DNA of 6,627 bases. Origin: a virus (lineage: Duplodnaviria; Heunggongvirae; Uroviricota; Caudoviricetes). Location: IMG/VR virus record IMGVR_UViG_2778261592_000001, positions 1-6,627 of that record. One strand, 5' to 3'. A program made the position numbers and the translations under genes. Below, piece by piece: positions 1 through 6,627 of the stretch (its first letter is position 1; each line of letters opens with the position of its first letter). The notes below the pieces were generated by a model that was given only the letters and a program-made list of their open reading frames with translations, ran no database searches and had not been told where the DNA came from.

Positions 1-2054
1 TCGGTCAGAATGGCTGATTGTGCTTCCCGTGACTGTTTCAGCCACCACTTAATGGTGTCCCGATCGATGACTCCGCCTGCGGTTTCCAGATCGATAGTTT
101 TGCTGAATTCTGGCCCCATCTCTCCGGTTGCCGGATCAAAAAACTTACCGGCCAGAGCGTTTATTGGGGCATCAGGATTTTTGCCCATTGTTTCAAGGTT
201 AATCATCAGATGGTGCCACAACCTGCTGGTGGATGTGCTTTCACGATGACCGTTCACCTTAATTAAGGGATTTGCTGTCTCGCCACTTTCATTATCTGTG
301 GTGTGGTAGTGATCGCCGCCAGAGCCTTCCATTTCTTCCTGAGCTTCAGCCTGATTTTCTTCATCGAGTGTTTCCTGGTAGGTTGCGTTGCCCATCACCG
401 CGCCACAGTCAGGACAGTTGCCGCCACCGCTCTGACCGCAGGCGGTGCAGACTTTTTCCTCTTCCTGTTGCGCTACTGGTTCGGATTGTTTCGTTTCTGG
501 CTCGTCTTGTAACGCATTTTGGCTGTTTTGTTCTGCTTTCTGGTCGTTCTGTTCCGTTTCTTGCTGGTTCTGGTTCACAGAATCGCAGGTTTCAATCCCC
601 TTAACCCATTTCGGATCATTCGGGTCGCTAATCCCCTCAACAAATTCACCACGCGATACAGCAAGTAACTTATCGGCGTCAGGCTGGCTGATATTGGCTG
701 CCTGCATAATTTTGTTTACTTCGTCAGCGGTGACTTTTACTTGGTTAGCGGAACTCACCTGCGACTGAGCGTTCTGGCAATGTTCAGTTGTATCCGGTTC
801 CATTGTTTCAGTTGTTGCCTGTTCACCTGCCATTGCGTCAGATGGTTGTGGTTTTTCTTCTTCTGTTTCACGTTCAGTAACCACCTCGCGGTTAATTTCT
901 TCCAGGATATCTTTTTCCGGCGTATGCCGGGCAGCTGTGAGAGTTTCCTTGCTGGGGTTCTCGTGATCAGTTTCCGTCAAATAGGCGTTGATATACCCCT
1001 GAAGGCGTCCCGGGTAGTGATAAAATTCAGGGTGTGCGCTTCGGATAAGTGCAAAAATAGCGGCGCGGGAATAGTCCAGAATACCCGGGGTTGCACGAAG
1101 TGCTGCGGACCATTCTTTGAACGGACTTTCTTTTTTCAGGACTACTTCTTTTGCGCGACGATAAACGCTGCCCGGAATTTCATAAATATTAAAATCCATC
1201 GGAAGTGTGGCAGCTGCAATCTCCACATCCAGTGTGTCGAGGGTGTGTACTAAATTCGGATTGCGATCGGTTTTGTTCCCACCGCCAGCATTAGCACCGG
1301 AAGCCGTGCGGGTGATGCGTGAAACACGATTTCCTTTCATCCACTCTTTTGTCAGCAGACCTCGATCAGTGTAGTCAGCGTCCAGGTATGCTTCGAAAAA
1401 AGCAGTTATTAGTCCCAGGTCTGAATTACCCGGATTAGGGAAAACTTTGTCAGTGTCACGAACCAGTTTGTGGAGGTCGCGAATCTCCAGCGAGTCGAGC
1501 AGACTGGTTTTATGCGAAATAGCCAGGGCAGTAACAGCCGGTAGTTCTTCAGCCCGTGCAATGTGTAATGCCTGGAGTTCGTCGCGTGAAACGTGCGTTA
1601 CTGGTTTTTCGCTGCCGTGTTGAGCAAGCCAACGAATGGGCAATTCCTGACCGGAGACAGGCAGAAGCATGCTCTCCTCAATCTCAGTCATGTCTTCGCC
1701 GTTGATGTTGGTATTGTCAGTGCTGGCTGGTTTGTCCTGAACAGAGGGGGAAGGGCCGATAAATGTCATTGTGATGCCATCTTTCCCGCCTTTTTCATAG
1801 CGGTTGCAGAATTCAGTATCAAACACGCCTTCTGGCGGAAGGTCGTCAACAACGGGCAAATTGACGCGGACGGGTTTTTTAAAGTCGTCTTCATCATAAT
1901 CGTTGTCATCCATTGCAGTAATGCAGCGGGAGATTGCAACAGATAATTTTTTTGCTGTAGTCCAGTAAAAACCACCTTTAATTCCCAGGCGTTTTCTTAC
2001 TTTGTCATTTTTTGCTTCGCAATATAGTGCAAATTCTTCTTTATCAGTGCTCAT
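1..2054 (-). CDS. recE: RecE-like exonuclease VIII family protein, N-terminal 684 codons; C-terminus lies beyond the left edge
   Basis: Uninterrupted minus-strand reading frame from ATG at 2054 ([15 protein letters not shown]...) to position 1, hand-translated with no stop; not in the ORF track because it is edge-truncated. A long block ([85 protein letters not shown]) matches my recollection of the Rac prophage RecE N-terminal region. Sits directly downstream of ydfD, where K-12 has the ydfE fragment. Weak GAGG Shine-Dalgarno 14-17 nt upstream. Confidence 0.7.
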
Positions 2055-2147
2055 TATTGATAAACCTCATCACAGATTTAAGGGTGAACAAATCTCTGCC
2101 ATTGCTGACATATAAGAATGAAACTGGATATTTATTACGGTGCTGTT

Positions 2148-2336
2148 TTAAAATCCTGCCGGGATTTCGTTATCCTGGTGAATAACTTTATCGACCGGAT
2201 AACAGTTGCCTGGAATTTTCTGTTCGGTTGCTGCGGCCATACATTCCTGCATTGTTCTGTGAACACTGACTGCAATATCAACTGGCTCTCCGGAAACAAG
2301 AAAAACCGTCAGAATAAGTGCAAATGCTGAATTCAT
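2148..2336 (-). CDS. ydfD: YdfD-like small lysis protein with N-terminal hydrophobic segment (62 aa)
   Basis: MNSAFALILTVFLVSGEPVDIAVSVH... Start at 2336 has AAGGA 8 nt upstream and overlaps the dicB stop as ATGA. The longer track start at 2390 would overlap dicB by 58 nt. Position and size match ydfD of Qin (63 aa in K-12). Confidence 0.75.
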   Translation of the reverse strand: MNSAFALILTVFLVSGEPVDIAVSVHRTMQECMAAATEQKIPGNCYPVDKVIHQDNEIPAGF

Positions 2337-2521
2337 TGCGCACATCCTTTTGGCATCAGACGTAAACGAGCCAGCATTGAAACAATGCATATTTTATTTA
2401 ATAGCTCCCGTTCTTGTTTTCTCTTGTTAATGGCATCTTCAGTAAATACAGGGTTACTGATAGTGACACCAATTTCAAAACAACCTTCAGACGTATTAAC
2501 GTTTGGTAATAACGTTTTCAT
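2333..2521 (-). CDS. dicB: DicB cell-division inhibitor (MinC-activating), 62 aa
   Basis: MKTLLPNVNTSEGCFEIGVTISNPVFTEDAINKRKQERELLNKICIVSMLARLRLMPKGCAQ matches recalled DicB in sequence and length. GAGGA 7 nt upstream of ATG at 2521. Lies 175 nt downstream of DicF, as in K-12. Confidence 0.9.
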   Translation of the reverse strand: MKTLLPNVNTSEGCFEIGVTISNPVFTEDAINKRKQERELLNKICIVSMLARLRLMPKGCAQ

Positions 2522-2690
2522 TATCGCGTCCTCAACAATGAATTTTGTGATGCAGTGCCTGGTGCCTCCAGGTGACGTTAACCAGTTAACAATTAACGCC
2601 GGATACAGAGAATCCACCCATAACACTGTTTTTGGTTTTAACTGTTCCGCGTGCGCTCAGCCGCATTCACCACATCACAAAATTCACTTT

Positions 2691-2733
2691 AAAAAGGGCG
2701 GCAGAGCAGTCACGGAGTAAAACTGATACCGCC
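2691..2733 (-). terminator. Rho-independent terminator forming the DicF 3' end
   Basis: Minus-strand GGCGG (plus 2729-2733) pairs with CCGCC (within plus 2696-2701), followed by a five-U tract (plus 2691-2695). Confidence 0.6.
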
Positions 2734-2748
2734 AAACGTCACCAGAAA
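2696..2748 (-). ncRNA. dicF: DicF small regulatory RNA (53 nt)
   Basis: Minus-strand sequence UUUCUGGUGACGUUUGGCGGUAUCAGUUUUACUCCGUGACUGCUCUGCCGCCC followed by UUUUU (plus 2691-2695) matches recalled DicF exactly. 3' GC-rich stem (GGCGG/CCGCC) plus U-tract forms the intrinsic terminator. Confidence 0.85.
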
Positions 2749-3088
2749 ATTGATAACAGAAGGCGTTGCAGCGGGGTTGTCACTTAAGCGTATGGTCAAC
2801 CTGACAACCCGGTGTCCTCAACGGGGAAGAAATAACCCCTCCATACTTACCGCCGCACCATTTCGCGGGTTGCCACAACCGGAAGCGCACGGTCGACGAA
2901 AAGTTAACGACAGGCTATCTATGAACCAGCTACCTCGCCGTGCGCTTTCGCGTTATGGTCTGACTTTTCAGGGAAATATCCTTTCAGTAAACTGTCAGTG
3001 CCGGATGCTCACCCGCGTCCGGCGCACGCACTCCACCTCACCCGTGGAGAACTACTTAATTACCAACCTTAGCTTCGTTGGTTAGCTA

Positions 3089-3307
3089 TTAACGCGGGTA
3101 TGTAATCATTCTGGCAATGCTTAATGCCGCTGCTTTTTCCAGATTGGTGATATCCTGCTCCAGAGCGGACAGATTTTCAGCCTGCTTAGCCCTGGCTTCA
3201 TTGGCCCATTTCAGATCCTGCGCTGCATTAATTTTCTGGCGCATCCACTCATAAAGTTCATCATCGGTATAGTCTGGTGCGATGATGACGGGTTCTCGTT
3301 TCTGCAT
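3089..3307 (-). CDS. ydfC: YdfC-like hypothetical protein, predicted helical (72 aa)
   Basis: MQKREPVIIAPDYTDDELYEWMRQKINAAQDLKWANEARAKQAENLSALEQD... GAGGAA 5 nt upstream of the ATG. Position and length match ydfC in the Qin dicB operon. Confidence 0.8.
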   Translation of the reverse strand: MQKREPVIIAPDYTDDELYEWMRQKINAAQDLKWANEARAKQAENLSALEQDITNLEKAAALSIARMITYPR

Positions 3308-3336
3308 ACTGATTCCTCGCGGTGCTGTTTCGCTTA

Positions 3337-3465
3337 TCAGCCGTTAGATTTTGCCGAGCTGGAAAGCGCCTGTTTAAATTCGTTGAAGCTGAGAGCTTCT
3401 TCGCCGTCGGCAAGACCTTCGAAGTATTCTTCATAAGCCTTTTCCATGATTGTGTCGAAATCCAT
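3337..3465 (-). CDS. ydfB: YdfB-like small acidic protein (42 aa)
   Basis: Hand-translated MDFDTIMEKAYEEYFEGLADGEEALSFNEFKQALSSSAKSNG, ending in tandem stops TGATAA. ATG lies 1 nt after the ydfA stop (TGAtATG), with AGGTGAG upstream. Below the ORF-track size cut-off. Confidence 0.75.
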   Translation of the reverse strand: MDFDTIMEKAYEEYFEGLADGEEALSFNEFKQALSSSAKSNG

Positions 3466-3466
3466 A

Positions 3467-3622
3467 TCACTCACCTGAGTTTCTTTCCAGCCAGCGACGG
3501 GCACCATTTTCGGTTTTAAACGTTTTGCTTTTGGTATACGTCATCGCGGTGAACGTGCCGTCCTGGTTGGGGAACACGCCACATACCAGAGATTCGCTGT
3601 TGCCAAGATCGATAGTATCCAT
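3467..3622 (-). CDS. ydfA: YdfA-like small protein (51 aa)
   Basis: MDTIDLGNSESLVCGVFPNQDGTFTAMTYTKSKTFKTENGARRWLERNSGE. GAGGT 4-5 nt upstream of the ATG at 3622. The longer track ORF (start 3700) would begin inside the predicted promoter, so the internal start is preferred. Confidence 0.75.
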   Translation of the reverse strand: MDTIDLGNSESLVCGVFPNQDGTFTAMTYTKSKTFKTENGARRWLERNSGE

Positions 3623-3699
3623 GCTGACCTCATTTCCCCTTAACGCCGGGGTAGCGGAACTGTTTGCTGAGAACACCGTGCGGTGTCTTGATGCAAGCA

Positions 3700-3719
3700 A
3701 GATTAGCCATGACTAACAA
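3700..3719. promoter_or_regulatory. Operator-like imperfect palindrome, 16/20 match to the 20-bp site at 4246-4265
   Basis: agATTAGCCATGaCTAACAA; overlaps the -10 of the candidate operon promoter. Confidence 0.5.
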
Positions 3720-3728
3720 TTTGGTCAA
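3700..3728 (-). promoter_or_regulatory. Candidate sigma-70 promoter of the ydfABC-dicF-dicB-ydfD operon, overlapped by two operator palindromes
   Basis: Minus strand reads TTGACC (plus 3723-3728), 17-nt spacer, TAATCT (plus 3700-3705), about 80 nt upstream of the ydfA ATG. Confidence 0.5.
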
Positions 3729-3734
3729 GTATTT

Positions 3735-3754
3735 TTGTTTGCCATGGCTAACAT
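3735..3754. promoter_or_regulatory. Operator-like imperfect palindrome, 18/20 match to the 20-bp site at 4246-4265
   Basis: TTGTTtGCCATGGCTAACAt; centre lies 35 bp from the centre of the 3700-3719 site, just upstream of the -35. Confidence 0.55.
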
Positions 3755-3758
3755 TTTG

Positions 3759-3793
3759 GGCAGCCAAAAAGATAACGCATTGATTGCGTTATC
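3759..3793 (-). terminator. Candidate intrinsic terminator at the end of dicA
   Basis: Inverted repeat GATAACGCA (3771-3779) / TGCGTTATC (3785-3793) with 5-nt loop; the dicA stop codon lies in the stem. On the minus strand it is followed by TTTTT (plus 3766-3770). Confidence 0.45.
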
Positions 3794-4196
3794 TTTTGTT
3801 TGTTCGTTGACGGGCTTTTAATAACTCTTCAAAGAGTTTGTTGAAATTTTTTACTCGGGCGCGCATCTCGGTGAGCTGAGCATCCTGTTCTGATTCAGGC
3901 AATGCATTAAAAAGCTCAAGGAGCTCATGTTCTTTGGGGGATAGAGCAACTGGCTCCTCAATAGGTGGTGATGGCTGCTTGTCTTCATCGCCAAATAGAA
4001 TCCATGTTGGCGAGCACTGCAGTACTTTGCTGAGGGCAAAAAGATTCTTTCCTGTAGGTTCGCTATCATCCCGCTCCCATTGTGAAACCGATACGTGAGA
4101 AATTTTCAGGACTTTAGCAAGAGACCTTTGGGTGTATTTGAGGTTTTTTCGGCGATATCTAATGCGTTCGCCAATGGTTAAATTTTTTGTATCCAT
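3789..4196 (-). CDS. dicA: DicA, CI-like HTH (XRE family) prophage repressor, 135 aa
   Basis: MDTKNLTIGERIRYRRKNLKYTQRSLAKVLKISHVSVSQWERDDSEPTGKNLFALSKVLQCSPTWILFG... near-identical to recalled K-12 DicA. Divergent from the Cro-like gene. No obvious Shine-Dalgarno. Confidence 0.9.
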   Translation of the reverse strand: MDTKNLTIGERIRYRRKNLKYTQRSLAKVLKISHVSVSQWERDDSEPTGKNLFALSKVLQCSPTWILFGDEDKQPSPPIEEPVALSPKEHELLELFNALPESEQDAQLTEMRARVKNFNKLFEELLKARQRTNKR

Positions 4197-4218
4197 AGTT
4201 AGCTAATGCTAAATCTTA

Positions 4219-4247
4219 TTGACTATGTTTTTGTTAACATCTATTTT
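4219..4247 (+). promoter_or_regulatory. Candidate sigma-70 promoter for dicC
   Basis: TTGACT (4219-4224), 17-nt spacer, TATTTT (4242-4247); the 20-bp operator palindrome overlaps the -10 and the predicted transcription start. Confidence 0.5.
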
Positions 4248-4265
4248 GTTAGCCATGGCTAACAA
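4246..4265. promoter_or_regulatory. Perfect 20-bp palindromic operator, candidate DicA binding site
   Basis: TTGTTAGCCATGGCTAACAA is its own reverse complement. Located in the dicA-dicC intergenic region; two degenerate copies lie upstream of ydfA. Confidence 0.65.
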
Positions 4266-4279
4266 TTAAGGTGCTTTAA

Positions 4280-4510
4280 ATGCTTAAAACTGACGCACTT
4301 TTGTATTTCGGTTCAAAAACAAAACTTGCACAAGCTGCTGGTATTCGTTTGGCTTCGCTTTATAGCTGGAAAGGGGAGCTAGTACCTGAAGGTCGCGCGA
4401 TGCGCCTGCAAGAGGCATCCGGCGGGGAACTTCAGTACGACCCCAAAGTTTATGACGAATATCGTAAGGCAAAGCGGGCGGGGCGGTTGAACAATGAAAA
4501 TCACCCCTGA
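4280..4510 (+). CDS. dicC: DicC, Cro-like regulator, 76 aa
   Basis: MLKTDALLYFGSKTKLAQAAGIRLASLYSWKGELVPEGRAMRLQEASGGELQYDPKVYDEYRKAKRAGRLNNENHP matches recalled DicC. TAAGG 8 nt upstream of the ATG. Confidence 0.9.
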   Translation: MLKTDALLYFGSKTKLAQAAGIRLASLYSWKGELVPEGRAMRLQEASGGELQYDPKVYDEYRKAKRAGRLNNENHP

Positions 4511-5045
4511 ACAGGTTTGTGAGGCTCTGGATGCCTGGGTGTGCCGACCAGGAATGACACAGGAACAGGCGACGATATTAATCACGGAAGCATTCTGGGC
4601 TCTGAAAGAACGCCCGAACATCGATGTTCAACGCATCACGTTTAATGATGGCGAGGTTGATCAACGGGCACTGGGCGTTAACCGGGTGAAGATATTCGAA
4701 CGCTGGAAAGCTATCGACACCAGGGATAAGCGGAAAAAATTCACGGCGCTGATTCCGGCAATTATGGAGGCTATCCGAATTAGTGATTTCAGGTTGTATC
4801 GTGAGATCAGTGATGGAAAAAGCATTACGTACATGATCGCCGGATTAAACAAAGAATATGGCGATGTGGTGGAGTCCGGGCTGCTTTTTGCGGATCCATC
4901 TGTTGTGGAACGTGAGACTGACGAGCTTATAGAAAAAGCTATTGCTTTCAAGCATGCGTATCGTCAGCAGTATCAATATTACTTTGCAGATAAACAAATA
5001 TCTGCCAGGGGTTCGTATGAGTATCGATGCACTACGATGGGCTAA
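4494..5045 (+). CDS. YdaT-like (CII-analog family) protein, 183 aa; intact counterpart of the K-12 ydfX remnant
   Basis: Complete ORF starting 17 nt before the dicC stop. Begins MKI... and has the motif KFTALIPAIMEAI, resembling the KLIPAILAIL region I recall in Rac YdaT. Same position (after the cro-like gene) as ydaT in Rac-type prophages. Family assignment is from memory only. Confidence 0.55.
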   Translation: MKITPEQVCEALDAWVCRPGMTQEQATILITEAFWALKERPNIDVQRITFNDGEVDQRALGVNRVKIFERWKAIDTRDKRKKFTALIPAIMEAIRISDFRLYREISDGKSITYMIAGLNKEYGDVVESGLLFADPSVVERETDELIEKAIAFKHAYRQQYQYYFADKQISARGSYEYRCTTMG

Positions 5046-6057
5046 AAAGGTGAAAACCGGCAGTTCATCCAGTAAGTCTGTATTGACCTGGCTTGCTGAT
5101 ATGTGCGGTGCCGATTTGTGTGCATACCCGTCTGTATCTGCACTGGCAGAAGTAACGGAACTGAACAAAAAGACTGTGCAGGACAGCTTACGACACCTGA
5201 TGGAGATTGGGTTAATTGTTGATACCGGTGAGAGAAAAGGCAGAACAAAGCAAATTGTGGTGTACCGACTTATCGGTGTAGAAGAAAGTGTTGCCGAGCC
5301 TGAATACACCCAAAAACGGGTGTCTTTAAAGGTGGGTAAAATTGGTGCTGTTAATAAAAACAGTACCGAAAACGGTTATGTTTCAGCACAAAAGAGCCCC
5401 AAAAACGGAACTCTTTGTTGCATGGAAAATAACCAAAGACACCCAAATTTTCCATCAAAGACACCCAAAAACGGATCACGGAACCCAAAGGAACCCAAAG
5501 ATCTAAACCCCACACATAACGCACACGAGAGTGCTCCGATCAGTGAGCAGGAAGTTTTGTCGTTACAGGCAGCCCCCCATGTATTCCTGGATGGCCTGAG
5601 CGAACCCATCGGAAAATTTCCGATGACCGATAGCTGGTATCCGTCACGGGATTTTCGACGACGGGCTGCGTTGTGGGGGATGGCTTTGCCGGAGACAGAA
5701 TTTACACCTGCTGAACTTACCGCATTCCGGGACTACTGGGCAGCGGAGGGGAAAGTGTTTACGCAGATTCAGTGGGAGCAGAAATTCGCCCGTCACGTAA
5801 ATCACGTCAGGGCGCAGGTTAAACCAGTCAGCAAGGGGGTAAACCATGCAGCAGCACCAGGTGGCACCGCATCACGGGCAGTTCAGGAAATTCGGGCAGC
5901 ACGTGAGCAGTGGGAACGTGAAAACGGATTTATCAGCGACGGAAACGGCCTGGAAGCTGTGGGAACTCATGGGGGAGGTTTATTCGAACCGCTGGACCCA
6001 GAAGAACGGGGCCGCACCTTCGAAGCTCTGGATTGCACAGATTGGCGCGATGACTGA
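5017..6057 (+). CDS. Phage replication initiation protein: winged-helix N-terminal domain, low-complexity linker, DnaT-like C-terminal domain (346 aa from chosen start)
   Basis: Start ATG 5017 (MSIDALRWAKKV...) has AGGGG 5 nt upstream and overlaps the upstream gene by 29 nt; the track ORF start at 4942 would overlap by 104 nt. C-terminal segment (WYPSRDFRRRAALWGMALPETEFTPAELTAFRDYWAAEGKVFTQIQWEQKFARHV) resembles DnaT-like ssDNA-binding domains. Occupies the lambda O position upstream of a P-like gene. Confidence 0.7.
   Translation: MSIDALRWAKKVKTGSSSSKSVLTWLADMCGADLCAYPSVSALAEVTELNKKTVQDSLRHLMEIGLIVDTGERKGRTKQIVVYRLIGVEESVAEPEYTQKRVSLKVGKIGAVNKNSTENGYVSAQKSPKNGTLCCMENNQRHPNFPSKTPKNGSRNPKEPKDLNPTHNAHESAPISEQEVLSLQAAPHVFLDGLSEPIGKFPMTDSWYPSRDFRRRAALWGMALPETEFTPAELTAFRDYWAAEGKVFTQIQWEQKFARHVNHVRAQVKPVSKGVNHAAAPGGTASRAVQEIRAAREQWERENGFISDGNGLEAVGTHGGGLFEPLDPEERGRTFEALDCTDWRDD
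5397..5500. repeat. Iteron-like direct repeats (ACCCAAA core), candidate replication origin inside the initiator gene
   Basis: CAAAGACACCCAAA at 5434-5447 and 5456-5469 (22-bp spacing); CCCAAAAACGGA at 5398-5409 and 5464-5475 (66-bp spacing); tandem GGAACCCAAA at 5480-5489 and 5490-5499. A moderately AT-rich stretch lies just upstream (5350-5395). Confidence 0.5.
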
Positions 6058-6511
6058 GCAGCAAATCCGGCAGGTCTGCCGCCAGTGCATGGACCGCTGC
6101 CGGGCGGGTGAAACATGGCCTCCGGACCTGGCTGAGTTTGTGGCGCTGATTTCGGAAAGCGGGGCCAATCCATTTGGCCTGACGGTGGATGCTGTGATGG
6201 AGGAGTATCGCCGCTGGCGTAATGAGTCCTGGCGATATAACGGAAGCGACAAATATCCGTGGCCTCAGCCTGTGCTGTATCACATTTGCCTCGAGATGCG
6301 TTCAAAGGGGATTGAACGCCAGATGACCGAAGGGGAATTAAAACGGCTTGCAGAACGGCAGCTGACGAAATGGGCAAAGCATGTTAGTAACGGCCTGAGC
6401 GTTCCGCCAGTACGGCGACAACTGGCGGCACCAAAACGCCCGTTGGGACCAACGCCAATTGAGTTGCTGAAACAGGAGTATGAACGCCGGAAAGCGGCTG
6501 GTTTTGTCTGA
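6050..6511 (+). CDS. Lambda P-like replication protein (DnaB helicase loader family); start uncertain, in-frame alternatives at 5969 and 5846
   Basis: Resembles recalled lambda P: AMTEQQIRQVCRQ..ETWPPDLAEFVALI vs ITTMEQVNAGMRVARRQ..PFLPSPGQFVAWC, and YPWPQPVLYH..TEGELKRLAERQ vs YPWKSNAHYW..TDAELRRKAADE. ATG 6050 overlaps the upstream stop as ATGACTGA. The frame is open from 5846, which has AAGGGGG 6 nt upstream and would give 221 aa. Confidence 0.7.
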   Translation: MTEQQIRQVCRQCMDRCRAGETWPPDLAEFVALISESGANPFGLTVDAVMEEYRRWRNESWRYNGSDKYPWPQPVLYHICLEMRSKGIERQMTEGELKRLAERQLTKWAKHVSNGLSVPPVRRQLAAPKRPLGPTPIELLKQEYERRKAAGFV

Positions 6512-6545
6512 TTTGAGAAGTAATTTTTATCCGGAGGAAATTTTA

Positions 6546-6627
6546 ATGGGAACCGTATTGCATGCACTGAAAGCGATGGGTAAAGCCAATTCTGTTGAAC
6601 TGGCGGCGCGGCTTGATATCAGCCGTG
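6546..6627 (+). CDS. Hypothetical protein, 5' fragment only (27 codons in window), possibly Ren-like
   Basis: ATG 6546 preceded by GGAGGAAA with 7-nt spacer; frame open to the window end (MGTVLHALKAMGKANSVELAARLDISR...). Loose resemblance to lambda Ren N-terminus; too short to classify. Confidence 0.45.
   Translation, partial: MGTVLHALKAMGKANSVELAARLDISR

Follow-up and report, generated by a model that had tools for sequence, protein, structure and literature searches.

The window analysed here, the whole 6,627-nucleotide (nt) stretch at positions 1 to 6,627 of IMG/VR record IMGVR_UViG_2778261592_000001, is a lambdoid or Rac-type early region of an Escherichia coli prophage. Its replication module comprises a gene for a replication initiator and, directly downstream on the same strand, a gene for a helicase loader resembling phage lambda P, and the open frames of these two genes coincide over 212 nt. 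The features that define this overlap are as follows:

5017–6057, plus strand: replication initiator gene, 346 amino acids (aa), with a putative N-terminal helix-turn-helix, a linker bearing iteron-like repeats, a DnaT-like domain, and a C-terminal tail that lies inside the overlap
5617–5817, plus strand: DnaT-like domain of the initiator, outside the overlap; reference for substitution rates
5833–5839, plus strand: Shine-Dalgarno sequence AAGGGGG of the loader gene, inside the initiator coding sequence (CDS) and 6 nt before the ATG at 5846
5846–6511, plus strand: lambda-P-like helicase loader gene in its full form, 221 aa, with its stop at 6509–6511
5846–6057, plus strand: dual-coding region of 212 nt, comprising initiator codons 277–346 and loader codons 1–70, with the loader in the +1 frame
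5846–5950, plus strand: 5′ half of the overlap; conserved helix motif SRAVQxIRAAREQW in the initiator, variable leader in the loader
5951–6057, plus strand: 3′ half of the overlap; first helices of the conserved domain II in the loader, disordered, acidic, glycine-rich tail in the initiator
5969–5971, plus strand: in-frame ATG (M42), the start in 180/181-aa annotations of other genera
6050–6052, plus strand: in-frame ATG (M69), the RefSeq start of a 153-aa form; ATGACTGA at 6050–6057
6055–6057, plus strand: initiator stop TGA, whose T is the third base of loader codon T70 and whose GA opens codon E71

The likely initiator ATG, at 5017, lies in a frame that is open from 4933 onwards, and the loader frame contains a TAA at 5840–5842, shortly before its ATG at 5846. 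An earlier reading of this DNA from its letters alone (hereafter the original prediction) had described both frames with their 212-nt overlap, the AAGGGGG with its 6-nt spacer, and the second ATG in the ATGACTGA junction; all of these are present in the sequence, and the ATG at 5969 is a third candidate start that it missed. It had also named the two products as an initiator followed by a lambda-P-like loader, and both identities proved correct by Pfam, by matches to lambda P and by fold.

RefSeq has the same initiator CDS (5017–6057 in the window) and labels it as a DnaT-like single-stranded-DNA-binding domain protein. Its residues 201–267 match the Pfam DnaT family (PF17948) with 60.4 bits against a cut-off of 25, and AlphaFold2 models this domain with a predicted local distance difference test (pLDDT) of 82–93; the N-terminus gives a weak match to HTH_36 (20.9 bits, cut-off 25). 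The loader matches PF06992 (Phage_lambda_P) with 59.6 bits against a gathering score of 26, its residues 56–188 aligning with profile positions 28–161, and direct sequence comparison retrieves the lambda P chains 8v9t (E = 5e-4) and 8v9s (E = 4e-3). In the AlphaFold2 model of the 221-aa loader (mean pLDDT 78.9), residues 1–26 are disordered (pLDDT <50) and confident helices are predicted at 25–46, 48–54, 60–67, 71–86 and 95–106. The only significant PDB matches found by Foldseek are lambda P in its DnaB complexes 9oa1 and 9oa2 (E = 9e-6 to 3e-3); the crystal structure of lambda P domain III (8v9s) scores E = 0.017 with a TM-score of 0.91 over 72 columns. In lambda P, a disordered domain I comes before domain II, which spans ~30–119 (PMC12661323), and the modelled loader, with its disordered residues 1–26 and helices within 25–106, 114–181 and 204–217, appears to follow the lambda P domain plan. 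From its family membership, the loader is predicted to bind and load host DnaB.

Start of the helicase loader

Public records of this loader give it 221–223, 180–181, 177, 153 or 140 residues. In E. coli O157:H7, the RefSeq protein has 153 aa and starts at the equivalent of 6050 (WP_000139476.1, ‘replication protein P’); homologues of 212–223 aa begin at the position equivalent to 5846. The original prediction had favoured the start at 6050, and had named in advance, as the test of that choice, an alignment with related proteins. In an alignment of 27 homologues (down to 45% identity), conservation begins at about residue 36, with the sequence AWxLWExMxEIYSNRWTxKNGxxPSxLWIAQIG, in which W50, K53, N54, G55, P58 and W62 are at least 90% conserved; all of these residues lie upstream of M69, and position 69 is itself often a leucine. 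Consistent with this, an exhaustive HMMER search over 1.84 billion representatives for relatives of the loader yielded many proteins at 20–40% identity that match specifically loader residues ~25–105. When aligned, these relatives, lambda P among them, share one common domain (~36–105) preceded by a variable leader of 20–50 residues; W62 is invariant among them and W39 and G55 nearly so, the conservation of W39 in distant relatives being 90% or more. The resemblance to lambda P that had been suspected upstream of 6050 is thus borne out, as the first residue in the PF06992 match is 56, which precedes the 6050 methionine by 13 codons, and the family alignments begin at ~36. The alignment therefore supports the long form and refutes the start at 6050.

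The start signals at 5846 are conserved as well. GGAGG, GAGG or AGGGGG precedes the first ATG by 6–9 nt in nearly all loci despite diverged flanks, and the calculated pairing with the anti-Shine-Dalgarno sequence at this ATG is –11.8 kcal/mol in the window and –9.9 kcal/mol on average over 22 loci. Over the same loci, the means at the M42 and M69 positions are –5.5 and –2.6 kcal/mol, respectively (background mean –2.6 kcal/mol, 5th percentile –7.1). Because the Shine-Dalgarno sequence is internal to the initiator gene and the start lies 70 codons before the initiator stop, the loader is not made by termination–reinitiation.

It is very unlikely that the loader is instead a short 153-aa protein, started at ATG 6050 and coupled to the initiator through ATGACTGA, with the open loader frame upstream a by-product of the initiator sequence. 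This start is annotated by RefSeq, in Rac-SA53 and in Actinobacillus phage pPE4, the junction has the classic coupling arrangement, the loader frame stays open in ~24–34% of reshuffles of the initiator codons, and codon usage in 5951–6055 slightly favours the initiator frame. However, it would place the near-invariant loader residues W39, W50, K53, N54, G55, P58 and W62 outside the protein, and the 3′ half of the overlap evolves as ordinary loader coding sequence. M69 is replaced by leucine or cysteine in several homologues (L026, L028, L031 and L033) and has no Shine-Dalgarno sequence. According to the model, starting there would also delete domain I together with three confidently predicted domain II helices (25–46, 48–54 and 60–67), and in Erwinia locus L032 the same N-terminal domain is encoded without any overlapping initiator. 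M69 is thus most likely an internal methionine, although a minor second loader product may be made from it.

The preference for 6050 had been based on codon choice, which was thought to look more typical in the initiator frame. This holds only weakly: mean ln relative synonymous codon usage shows no such preference in 5846–5950 (0.100 for the loader frame versus 0.101 for the initiator frame) and a slight one in 5951–6055 (0.004 versus 0.142). Given the near-identical values in the 5′ half, codon usage was rejected as a discriminator between the frames, and it carries little weight either way.

A start at ATG 5969 (M42), which would yield a 180-aa loader, a real overlap of 89 nt and an unused ATG at 5846, also appears improbable. 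M42 is conserved in nearly all homologues, NCBI lists 180/181-aa ‘replication protein P’ entries that begin at this position in Salmonella, Citrobacter, Klebsiella and others, its Shine-Dalgarno-like pairing is intermediate (–5.5 kcal/mol), and loader residues 1–35 are poorly conserved. By contrast, W36 and W39 are conserved upstream of M42, W39 even in distant relatives; M42 falls within the predicted helix 25–46, so that a start there would cut this first helix and lose both tryptophans, and it is replaced by leucine in L022 and L025. The L032 gene begins 13 codons upstream of the M42 equivalent, and the Shine-Dalgarno sequence of the first ATG is far stronger than that of M42, and conserved. 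The synonymous sites of the initiator are depressed in 5846–5950, as expected if the loader leader is translated, and a variable leader of 20–50 residues, lambda P domain I included, is the norm in this family. M42, too, is most likely an internal methionine.

Recurrence and selection in the two frames

Scanning one genome of each species gave 33 loci. Both frames are open in 30 Enterobacterales loci, with overlaps of 149–242 nt and the loader in the +1 frame in every case; these loci come from Escherichia, Citrobacter, Enterobacter, Klebsiella, Phytobacter, Pluralibacter, Kluyvera, Pectobacterium, Salmonella, Scandinavium, Buttiauxella, Dryocola, Samsonia, Rouxiella, Erwinia, Rahnella and Limnobaculum. 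Over ~40 loci in Enterobacterales prophages and Vibrio phages, the length ranges from 110 to 263 nt and is usually 190–230 nt, with the following values in individual phages:

Citrobacter phage Chris1: 215 nt, +1
Vibrio phage D67: 212 nt, +1
Vibrio phage pA2SJ1: 230 nt, +1
Vibrio phage D173: 200 nt, +1
Vibrio phage 1.214.O: 191 nt, +1
Vibrio phage F89: 263 nt, +1
Vibrio phage 1.183.O: 197 nt, +1
Vibrio phage VBM1: 110 nt, +1

Loader identity in seven Vibrio phage representatives falls to ~30%. The initiator stop keeps one position in most Enterobacterales loci, 58 nt before the WPPDLA motif, and lies at most five codons away from it in most others. Within E. coli, the segment 5500–6627, which spans the overlap, occurs at 99.9% identity in completed genomes, and sequence similar to it, mostly at 90–95% identity, is found in 1,334 of 5,426 complete genomes. 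Other PF06992 modules have no long overlap (a 4-nt ATGA junction in lambda, phi80 and phiV10, and a gap in PdC23); the long overlap therefore marks one sub-lineage. In the window alone, an overlap of this kind would be only mildly unlikely; it exceeds chance because it recurs across diverged lineages.

One of the phage records deserves a separate comment. In Actinobacillus phage vB_Apl-pPE4 (L003, PP818812.1, 939–2517), the initiator C-terminus and the loader are of the E. coli type, with an identity of 91% in nucleotides and 95.5% in protein, which is unexpectedly close for a phage of a Pasteurellaceae host (recorded host Actinobacillus pleuropneumoniae); host assignment or sample purity may be doubtful.

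That the overlap is an artefact of the window, caused by an indel, a sequencing error or a pseudogene, is so improbable as to be practically negligible. Frameshifted and fused versions do exist in databases. In L030 (Leclercia adecarboxylata NCTC13032, 2438–2689), a one-base frame change from the loader frame to the initiator frame joins the ~55 first loader residues to the initiator tail and truncates both genes, indicating a pseudogene or an assembly error, and the proteins P0030, P0084, P0107 and P0108 (291–385 aa), in which PF06992 is combined with PF07789 or PF07120 (DUF1376), are probably gene-calling fusions arising from frameshifts in or near the overlap. These genuinely frameshifted copies, however, look different from the window, whose segment is present almost unchanged in the completed E. 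coli genomes, and the same arrangement, with the same offset and approximately the same length, is found in ~40 independent loci from two bacterial orders. The frameshift that the original prediction had kept as an option is thus excluded by the shared two-frame arrangement.

Programmed +1 ribosomal frameshifting, by which the overlap would serve to produce an initiator–loader fusion protein, is scarcely credible either. The loader frame is indeed the +1 frame, fusion-length proteins are found in databases, and a Shine-Dalgarno-like element lies within the initiator frame, as at the +1 site of prfB, where such an internal element is spaced by ~3 nt. Yet the conserved ATG 6–9 nt after the Shine-Dalgarno sequence fits initiation rather than the ~3-nt spacing at prfB, and many loci have an in-frame stop directly before the ATG. 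The overlap in the window contains no slippery X XXY YYZ heptamer, and none is conserved among the loci; the GGGAAAT that recurs in other loci would shift by –1, away from the loader frame.

To what extent each frame constrains the other was assessed by synonymous reshuffling and by substitution patterns. In the window, the loader frame stays open with a probability of 0.34 when codons are reshuffled under the initiator protein, and the initiator frame with a probability of 0.03 when they are reshuffled under the loader protein. Given the loader protein, the initiator frame remains open in a median of ~4% of reshuffles over the loci, and in 0.1–1% in four Vibrio phages; for the 3′ half alone, the corresponding values are ~22% and 3–7% in the four Vibrio phages reshuffled. 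The tail frame is nevertheless open in all 34 loci that were reshuffled, and also in three further Vibrio phage loci. Substitution patterns were obtained as pairwise counts over 17 DnaT-type loci:

Loader, outside the overlap: amino-acid difference 0.28, synonymous difference 0.519
Loader, 3′ half of the overlap: amino-acid difference 0.29, synonymous difference 0.483
Loader, 5′ half of the overlap: amino-acid difference 0.60, synonymous difference 0.354
Initiator, DnaT domain: amino-acid difference 0.43, synonymous difference 0.515
Initiator, 5′ half of the overlap: amino-acid difference 0.53, synonymous difference 0.386
Initiator, 3′ half of the overlap: amino-acid difference 0.54, synonymous difference 0.122

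This comparison of synonymous sites in the two frames, which the original prediction had proposed as a check, thus gives a depression in both frames in the 5′ half and in the initiator only in the 3′ half. In the 5′ half, each frame depresses the synonymous sites of the other, which is the classic signature of dual coding; in the 3′ half, the loader frame dominates and evolves as ordinary coding sequence. Counts by codon position agree with this pattern.

The 3′ half leaves room for one further reading, namely a real overlap with a loader start at 5846, in which the initiator beyond ~5925 is nevertheless functionless read-through, tolerated after the loss of an ancestral stop. We regard this as the main open alternative for the 3′ half, and as unlikely. 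It would agree with a loader synonymous rate that is almost unreduced there (0.48 versus 0.52), with residues that flip upon synonymous loader changes, and with the predicted disorder of the tail. A claim of residue-level constraint on this part of the tail was in fact dropped after the all-pairs test of loader synonymous sites gave no significant reduction in the 3′ half, and composition was examined instead. In all 28 of the non-redundant loci compared, the last 35 initiator residues are richer in D/E and poorer in K/R than synonymous reshuffling of the loader codons would make them (net acidity, mean z +2.4), and therefore loader synonymous sites are used to keep the tail acidic. Besides this acidity above the reshuffle expectation, a functionless tail is disfavoured by a frame that is open in every reshuffled locus, against ~22% expected, and by a stop position kept within a few codons. 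It is further disfavoured by the retention of the tail behind unrelated initiator bodies and by the decay of the frame where the initiator has gone: in L032 (Erwinia sp. MMLR14_017), the loader open reading frame (ORF) and its N-terminal domain are intact, and the former tail frame contains three stops.

L032 is one of two orphan loaders without an initiator, both of which look like prophage remnants. Its loader follows a PTS-like gene; the other, L027 (Erwinia sp. CGal63), has its loader directly after a ttcA-like host gene and, unlike L032, retains an intact relic of the tail frame in the 3′ half.

With both frames conserved, the start signals conserved and signatures of selection in both frames, we consider it very probable that the window contains a real and evolutionarily old out-of-frame dual-coding overlap in a lambdoid prophage replication module, in which the loader starts at 5846. 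The long genuine overlap that had been listed among the options for this junction is thereby supported, both by conservation among homologues and by the conserved start signals. Several observations weigh on the other side. The loader frame is open in a median of 24% of reshuffles given the initiator protein, which by itself is weak evidence, and the loci are phylogenetically related, so that per-locus probabilities cannot simply be multiplied. Loader residues 1–35 are poorly conserved (amino-acid difference 0.60), and the exact start consequently rests on the conservation of the Shine-Dalgarno sequence and ATG and on the depression of synonymous sites, not on protein conservation. In the 3′ half, the reduction of the loader synonymous rate, 0.48 versus 0.52, is not significant, and synonymous loader changes replace tail residues radically (W by R, for instance); at the level of single residues, the constraint on this stretch of the tail is accordingly weak. 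The initiator tail helix reaches a pLDDT of only ~60, both products of the overlap are predicted proteins, and binding of the loader by the tail is argued only from analogy and co-variation.

Initiator tails and their loaders

In an AlphaFold2 model of the DnaT domain with the tail, the domain is confident, a helix is predicted at nt 5875–5922 (SRAVQEIRAAREQWER), and the rest is disordered (pLDDT <50). As modelled, in either half of the overlap one protein thus contributes a structured element and its partner a disordered end. Under the dual-coding reading, the initiator, with its putative helix-turn-helix, DnaT-like domain and tail, would be translated from 5017 to the TGA ending at 6057, and the loader would be translated independently from its own Shine-Dalgarno sequence and the ATG at 5846 in the +1 frame, giving 221 residues in four lambda-P-type domains. 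In the 5′ half, the initiator would carry its conserved helix and the loader a tolerant leader, disordered to about residue 26; this leader (1–26) would correspond to lambda P domain I, with the first helix of domain II beginning near residue 25. In the 3′ half, the loader would carry the first helices of domain II, and the initiator its disordered, acidic, glycine-rich tail.

The tail accompanies the loader behind three or more kinds of initiator body, of DnaT type, of lambda-O type and of other types. DnaT bodies are preceded by the weakly matched HTH_36 in the window, by DUF1376 in Rac-SA53 and Vibrio phage 1.183.O, and by other N-termini in pPE4; lambda-O-type C-terminal domains precede the tail in L021, L022, L025, L029, L033, L039 and L041, and other bodies do so in L020 and L026. 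A search of a word-indexed protein database with the initiator C-terminus matched mostly partial E. coli fragments and has no bearing on the occurrence of the tail elsewhere.

A similar association is seen in modules without the long overlap, where the type of the initiator C-terminal tip tracks the type of the loader N-terminus, whatever the initiator body: tips of the ‘TNTDWIYGV’ kind pair with lambda/phi80-type loader N-termini, and ‘HWNSPEAWEDFL’ tips pair with the loader type of phiV10, PdC23, L036 and L037, behind DnaT, DUF4373 or lambda-O bodies. In L034–L037, the C-terminal half of the loader is exchangeable separately from the N-terminal part. These mosaic loaders, from Trabulsiella and Enterobacter, have a lambda/phi80-type or phiV10-type N-terminal part up to a FLPSPGQF or FWPSPGQF motif and a C-terminal half 50% identical to the window loader, with the joint at about residue 93–110 of the window protein; they follow lambda-O-type initiators with short junctions.

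In lambda, the C-terminal region of O binds P, and the N-terminal part of P binds O (PMC6022878). The amber mutation Oam205 leaves 294 residues of O (mutant table of PMC6022878); from its CDS, lambda O has 299 aa. By analogy, we infer that the initiator helix and acidic tail may be the element by which the initiator recruits its own loader. The tail ends in LDxxDWxDD, which is reminiscent of lambda-O-type tips, and this likeness was not counted as shared ancestry, because L-D and D-W/R are shadows of the loader W62 and I-G codons, and because W alternates with R through synonymous loader changes.

If the tail does recruit the loader, the overlap would hold the matched specificity determinants of the two partners together on a stretch of DNA indivisible by recombination. 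It is conceivable, though we put it forward tentatively and as a minority possibility, that the 212 bases encode both of two mutually recognizing surfaces (the C-terminal helix and acidic tail of the initiator, and the N-terminal leader and first domain II helices of the loader), and that the overlap acts as a genetic lock against recombination separating a matched initiator–loader pair in mosaic phages. Such a lock would predate the split between the phages of Enterobacterales and Vibrio, and would have been present in the phage lineage from which the chromosomal VdhL helicase loaders of Vibrionaceae derive.

Related systems and the surrounding region

The closest comparison is the lambda O–P module. 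As in the window, the initiator is followed directly by a PF06992 loader with the lambda P domain plan, repeats resembling iterons lie inside the initiator gene, and mosaic exchange takes place inside the initiator, whose C-terminus thereby stays with the loader. The two differ in the junction, which is a 4-nt ATGA in lambda, whereas ~70 codons of each gene are co-encoded in the window; in the initiator body, which is of lambda-O type in the former and a putative helix-turn-helix plus a DnaT-like domain in the latter; and in the initiator C-terminus, which is a helix with an acidic tail in the window rather than a short ‘TNTDWIYGV’ or ‘HWNSPEAWEDFL’ tip. The repeats of the window lie at 5302–5475, in the linker that separates the putative helix-turn-helix from the DnaT-like domain, where a 19-nt unit (consensus approximately AAAGAsmCCCAAAAACGGA) occurs four times; the same linker contains shorter related repeats, CAAAGACACCCAAA three times and GGAACCCAAA twice. 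Judged by their sequence, the repeats at 5302–5475 look like an origin of the iteron type lying within the initiator gene, in the way that O contains ori-lambda.

Out-of-frame overprinted genes are familiar from phiX174 D/E and A/B/K and from lambda Rz/Rz1. Overprinting is thus a known phenomenon, some general features of which are reviewed in PMC8227390. Overprinted viral genes share with the window two frames on one DNA, depressed synonymous sites, and a disordered segment encoded by the less constrained frame. Unlike these, however, the window has a terminal overlap of neighbouring genes rather than an embedded gene, its two products probably work together, and the constraint swaps frames halfway, with the initiator dominant in the 5′ half and the loader in the 3′ half. 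In addition, it belongs to a large double-stranded (ds) DNA temperate phage, for which saving space is a weak argument.

Vibrio phages harbour proteins with the N-terminal domain of the window loader that are related to VBM1 gene 1 (the L041 protein matches VBM1 at 33% identity, E = 9e-22), and Vibrio phage loader-like proteins adjoin lambda-O-like genes. In Vibrio phage VBM1 (L046, NC_020850.1, 603–2037), gene 1 and the O-like gene upstream of it share 110 nt, with gene 1 in the +1 frame. VBM1 gene 1 is the viral VdhL homologue used in a study of virus-derived helicase loaders in Vibrionaceae (PMC11087808), in the text of which the word ‘overlap’ occurs zero times. PfamScan found no PF06992 domain in VdhL (PMC11087808), whereas the window loader is a clear member of this family.

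Both gene families, the lambda-P-type loader and the DnaT-domain replisome organizer, are known already, as is overprinting itself. What appears to be new is a long and ancient same-strand overlap of initiator and loader in the replication module of a dsDNA temperate phage, together with a constraint that swaps frames halfway and its implication for the linkage of cognate pairs; full-text literature searches found no description of this overlap, although most subscription journals lay outside their coverage and absence there is not proof. When the annotation of a bacterium or phage shows a long overlap on one strand, it is usually an error. The present case is a rare well-supported one, kept across two bacterial orders with selection on both frames, and it points to a way in which matched initiators and loaders could stay together in mosaic phages. 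Here the annotation error lies elsewhere and is widespread: the RefSeq form of 153 aa, the forms of 180 aa annotated in other genera and those of 140 aa in phage records lack the N-terminal leader and domain II helices, in part or completely. Synonymous recoding, or cloning based on the start codon, of either gene will damage the other, and published studies of Vibrio loaders that derive from phages may, unnoticed, have relied on gene models that were truncated or overlapping.

The remaining genes of the window resemble the ydaU–ydaV region of the K-12 Rac prophage, which likewise has dicA/dicC-like immunity genes, ydaT, an initiator, a second replication gene and a ydaW/DUF1627 gene. They are arranged around the replication module as follows:

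3789–4196, minus strand: dicA-like repressor
4280–4510, plus strand: Cro/dicC-like gene
4494–5045, plus strand: YdaT-family ORF (YdaT_toxin), 183 aa, PF06254 with 25.3 bits

The dicA-like and Cro/dicC-like immunity genes upstream mark the window as the early region of a Rac/PPompW-type prophage. Rac-SA53 carries this replication module at 92% nucleotide identity, with the genes labelled ydaU and ydaV; these names are by position only. The ydaV product of K-12 is presumably a DnaC-type protein, not a lambda-P-type loader.

The module has further contacts with its neighbours on either side. Upstream, the YdaT_toxin-family ORF shares 29 nt (5017–5045) with the start of the initiator gene. Downstream, the start of a DUF1627/ydaW-like gene (MGTVLHALKAMGKANSVELAARLDISR...) lies at 6547–6627, 35 nt past the loader stop; this segment is also 95% identical to the Shigella Stx phages POCJ13 and 75/02, which are otherwise without this replication module.

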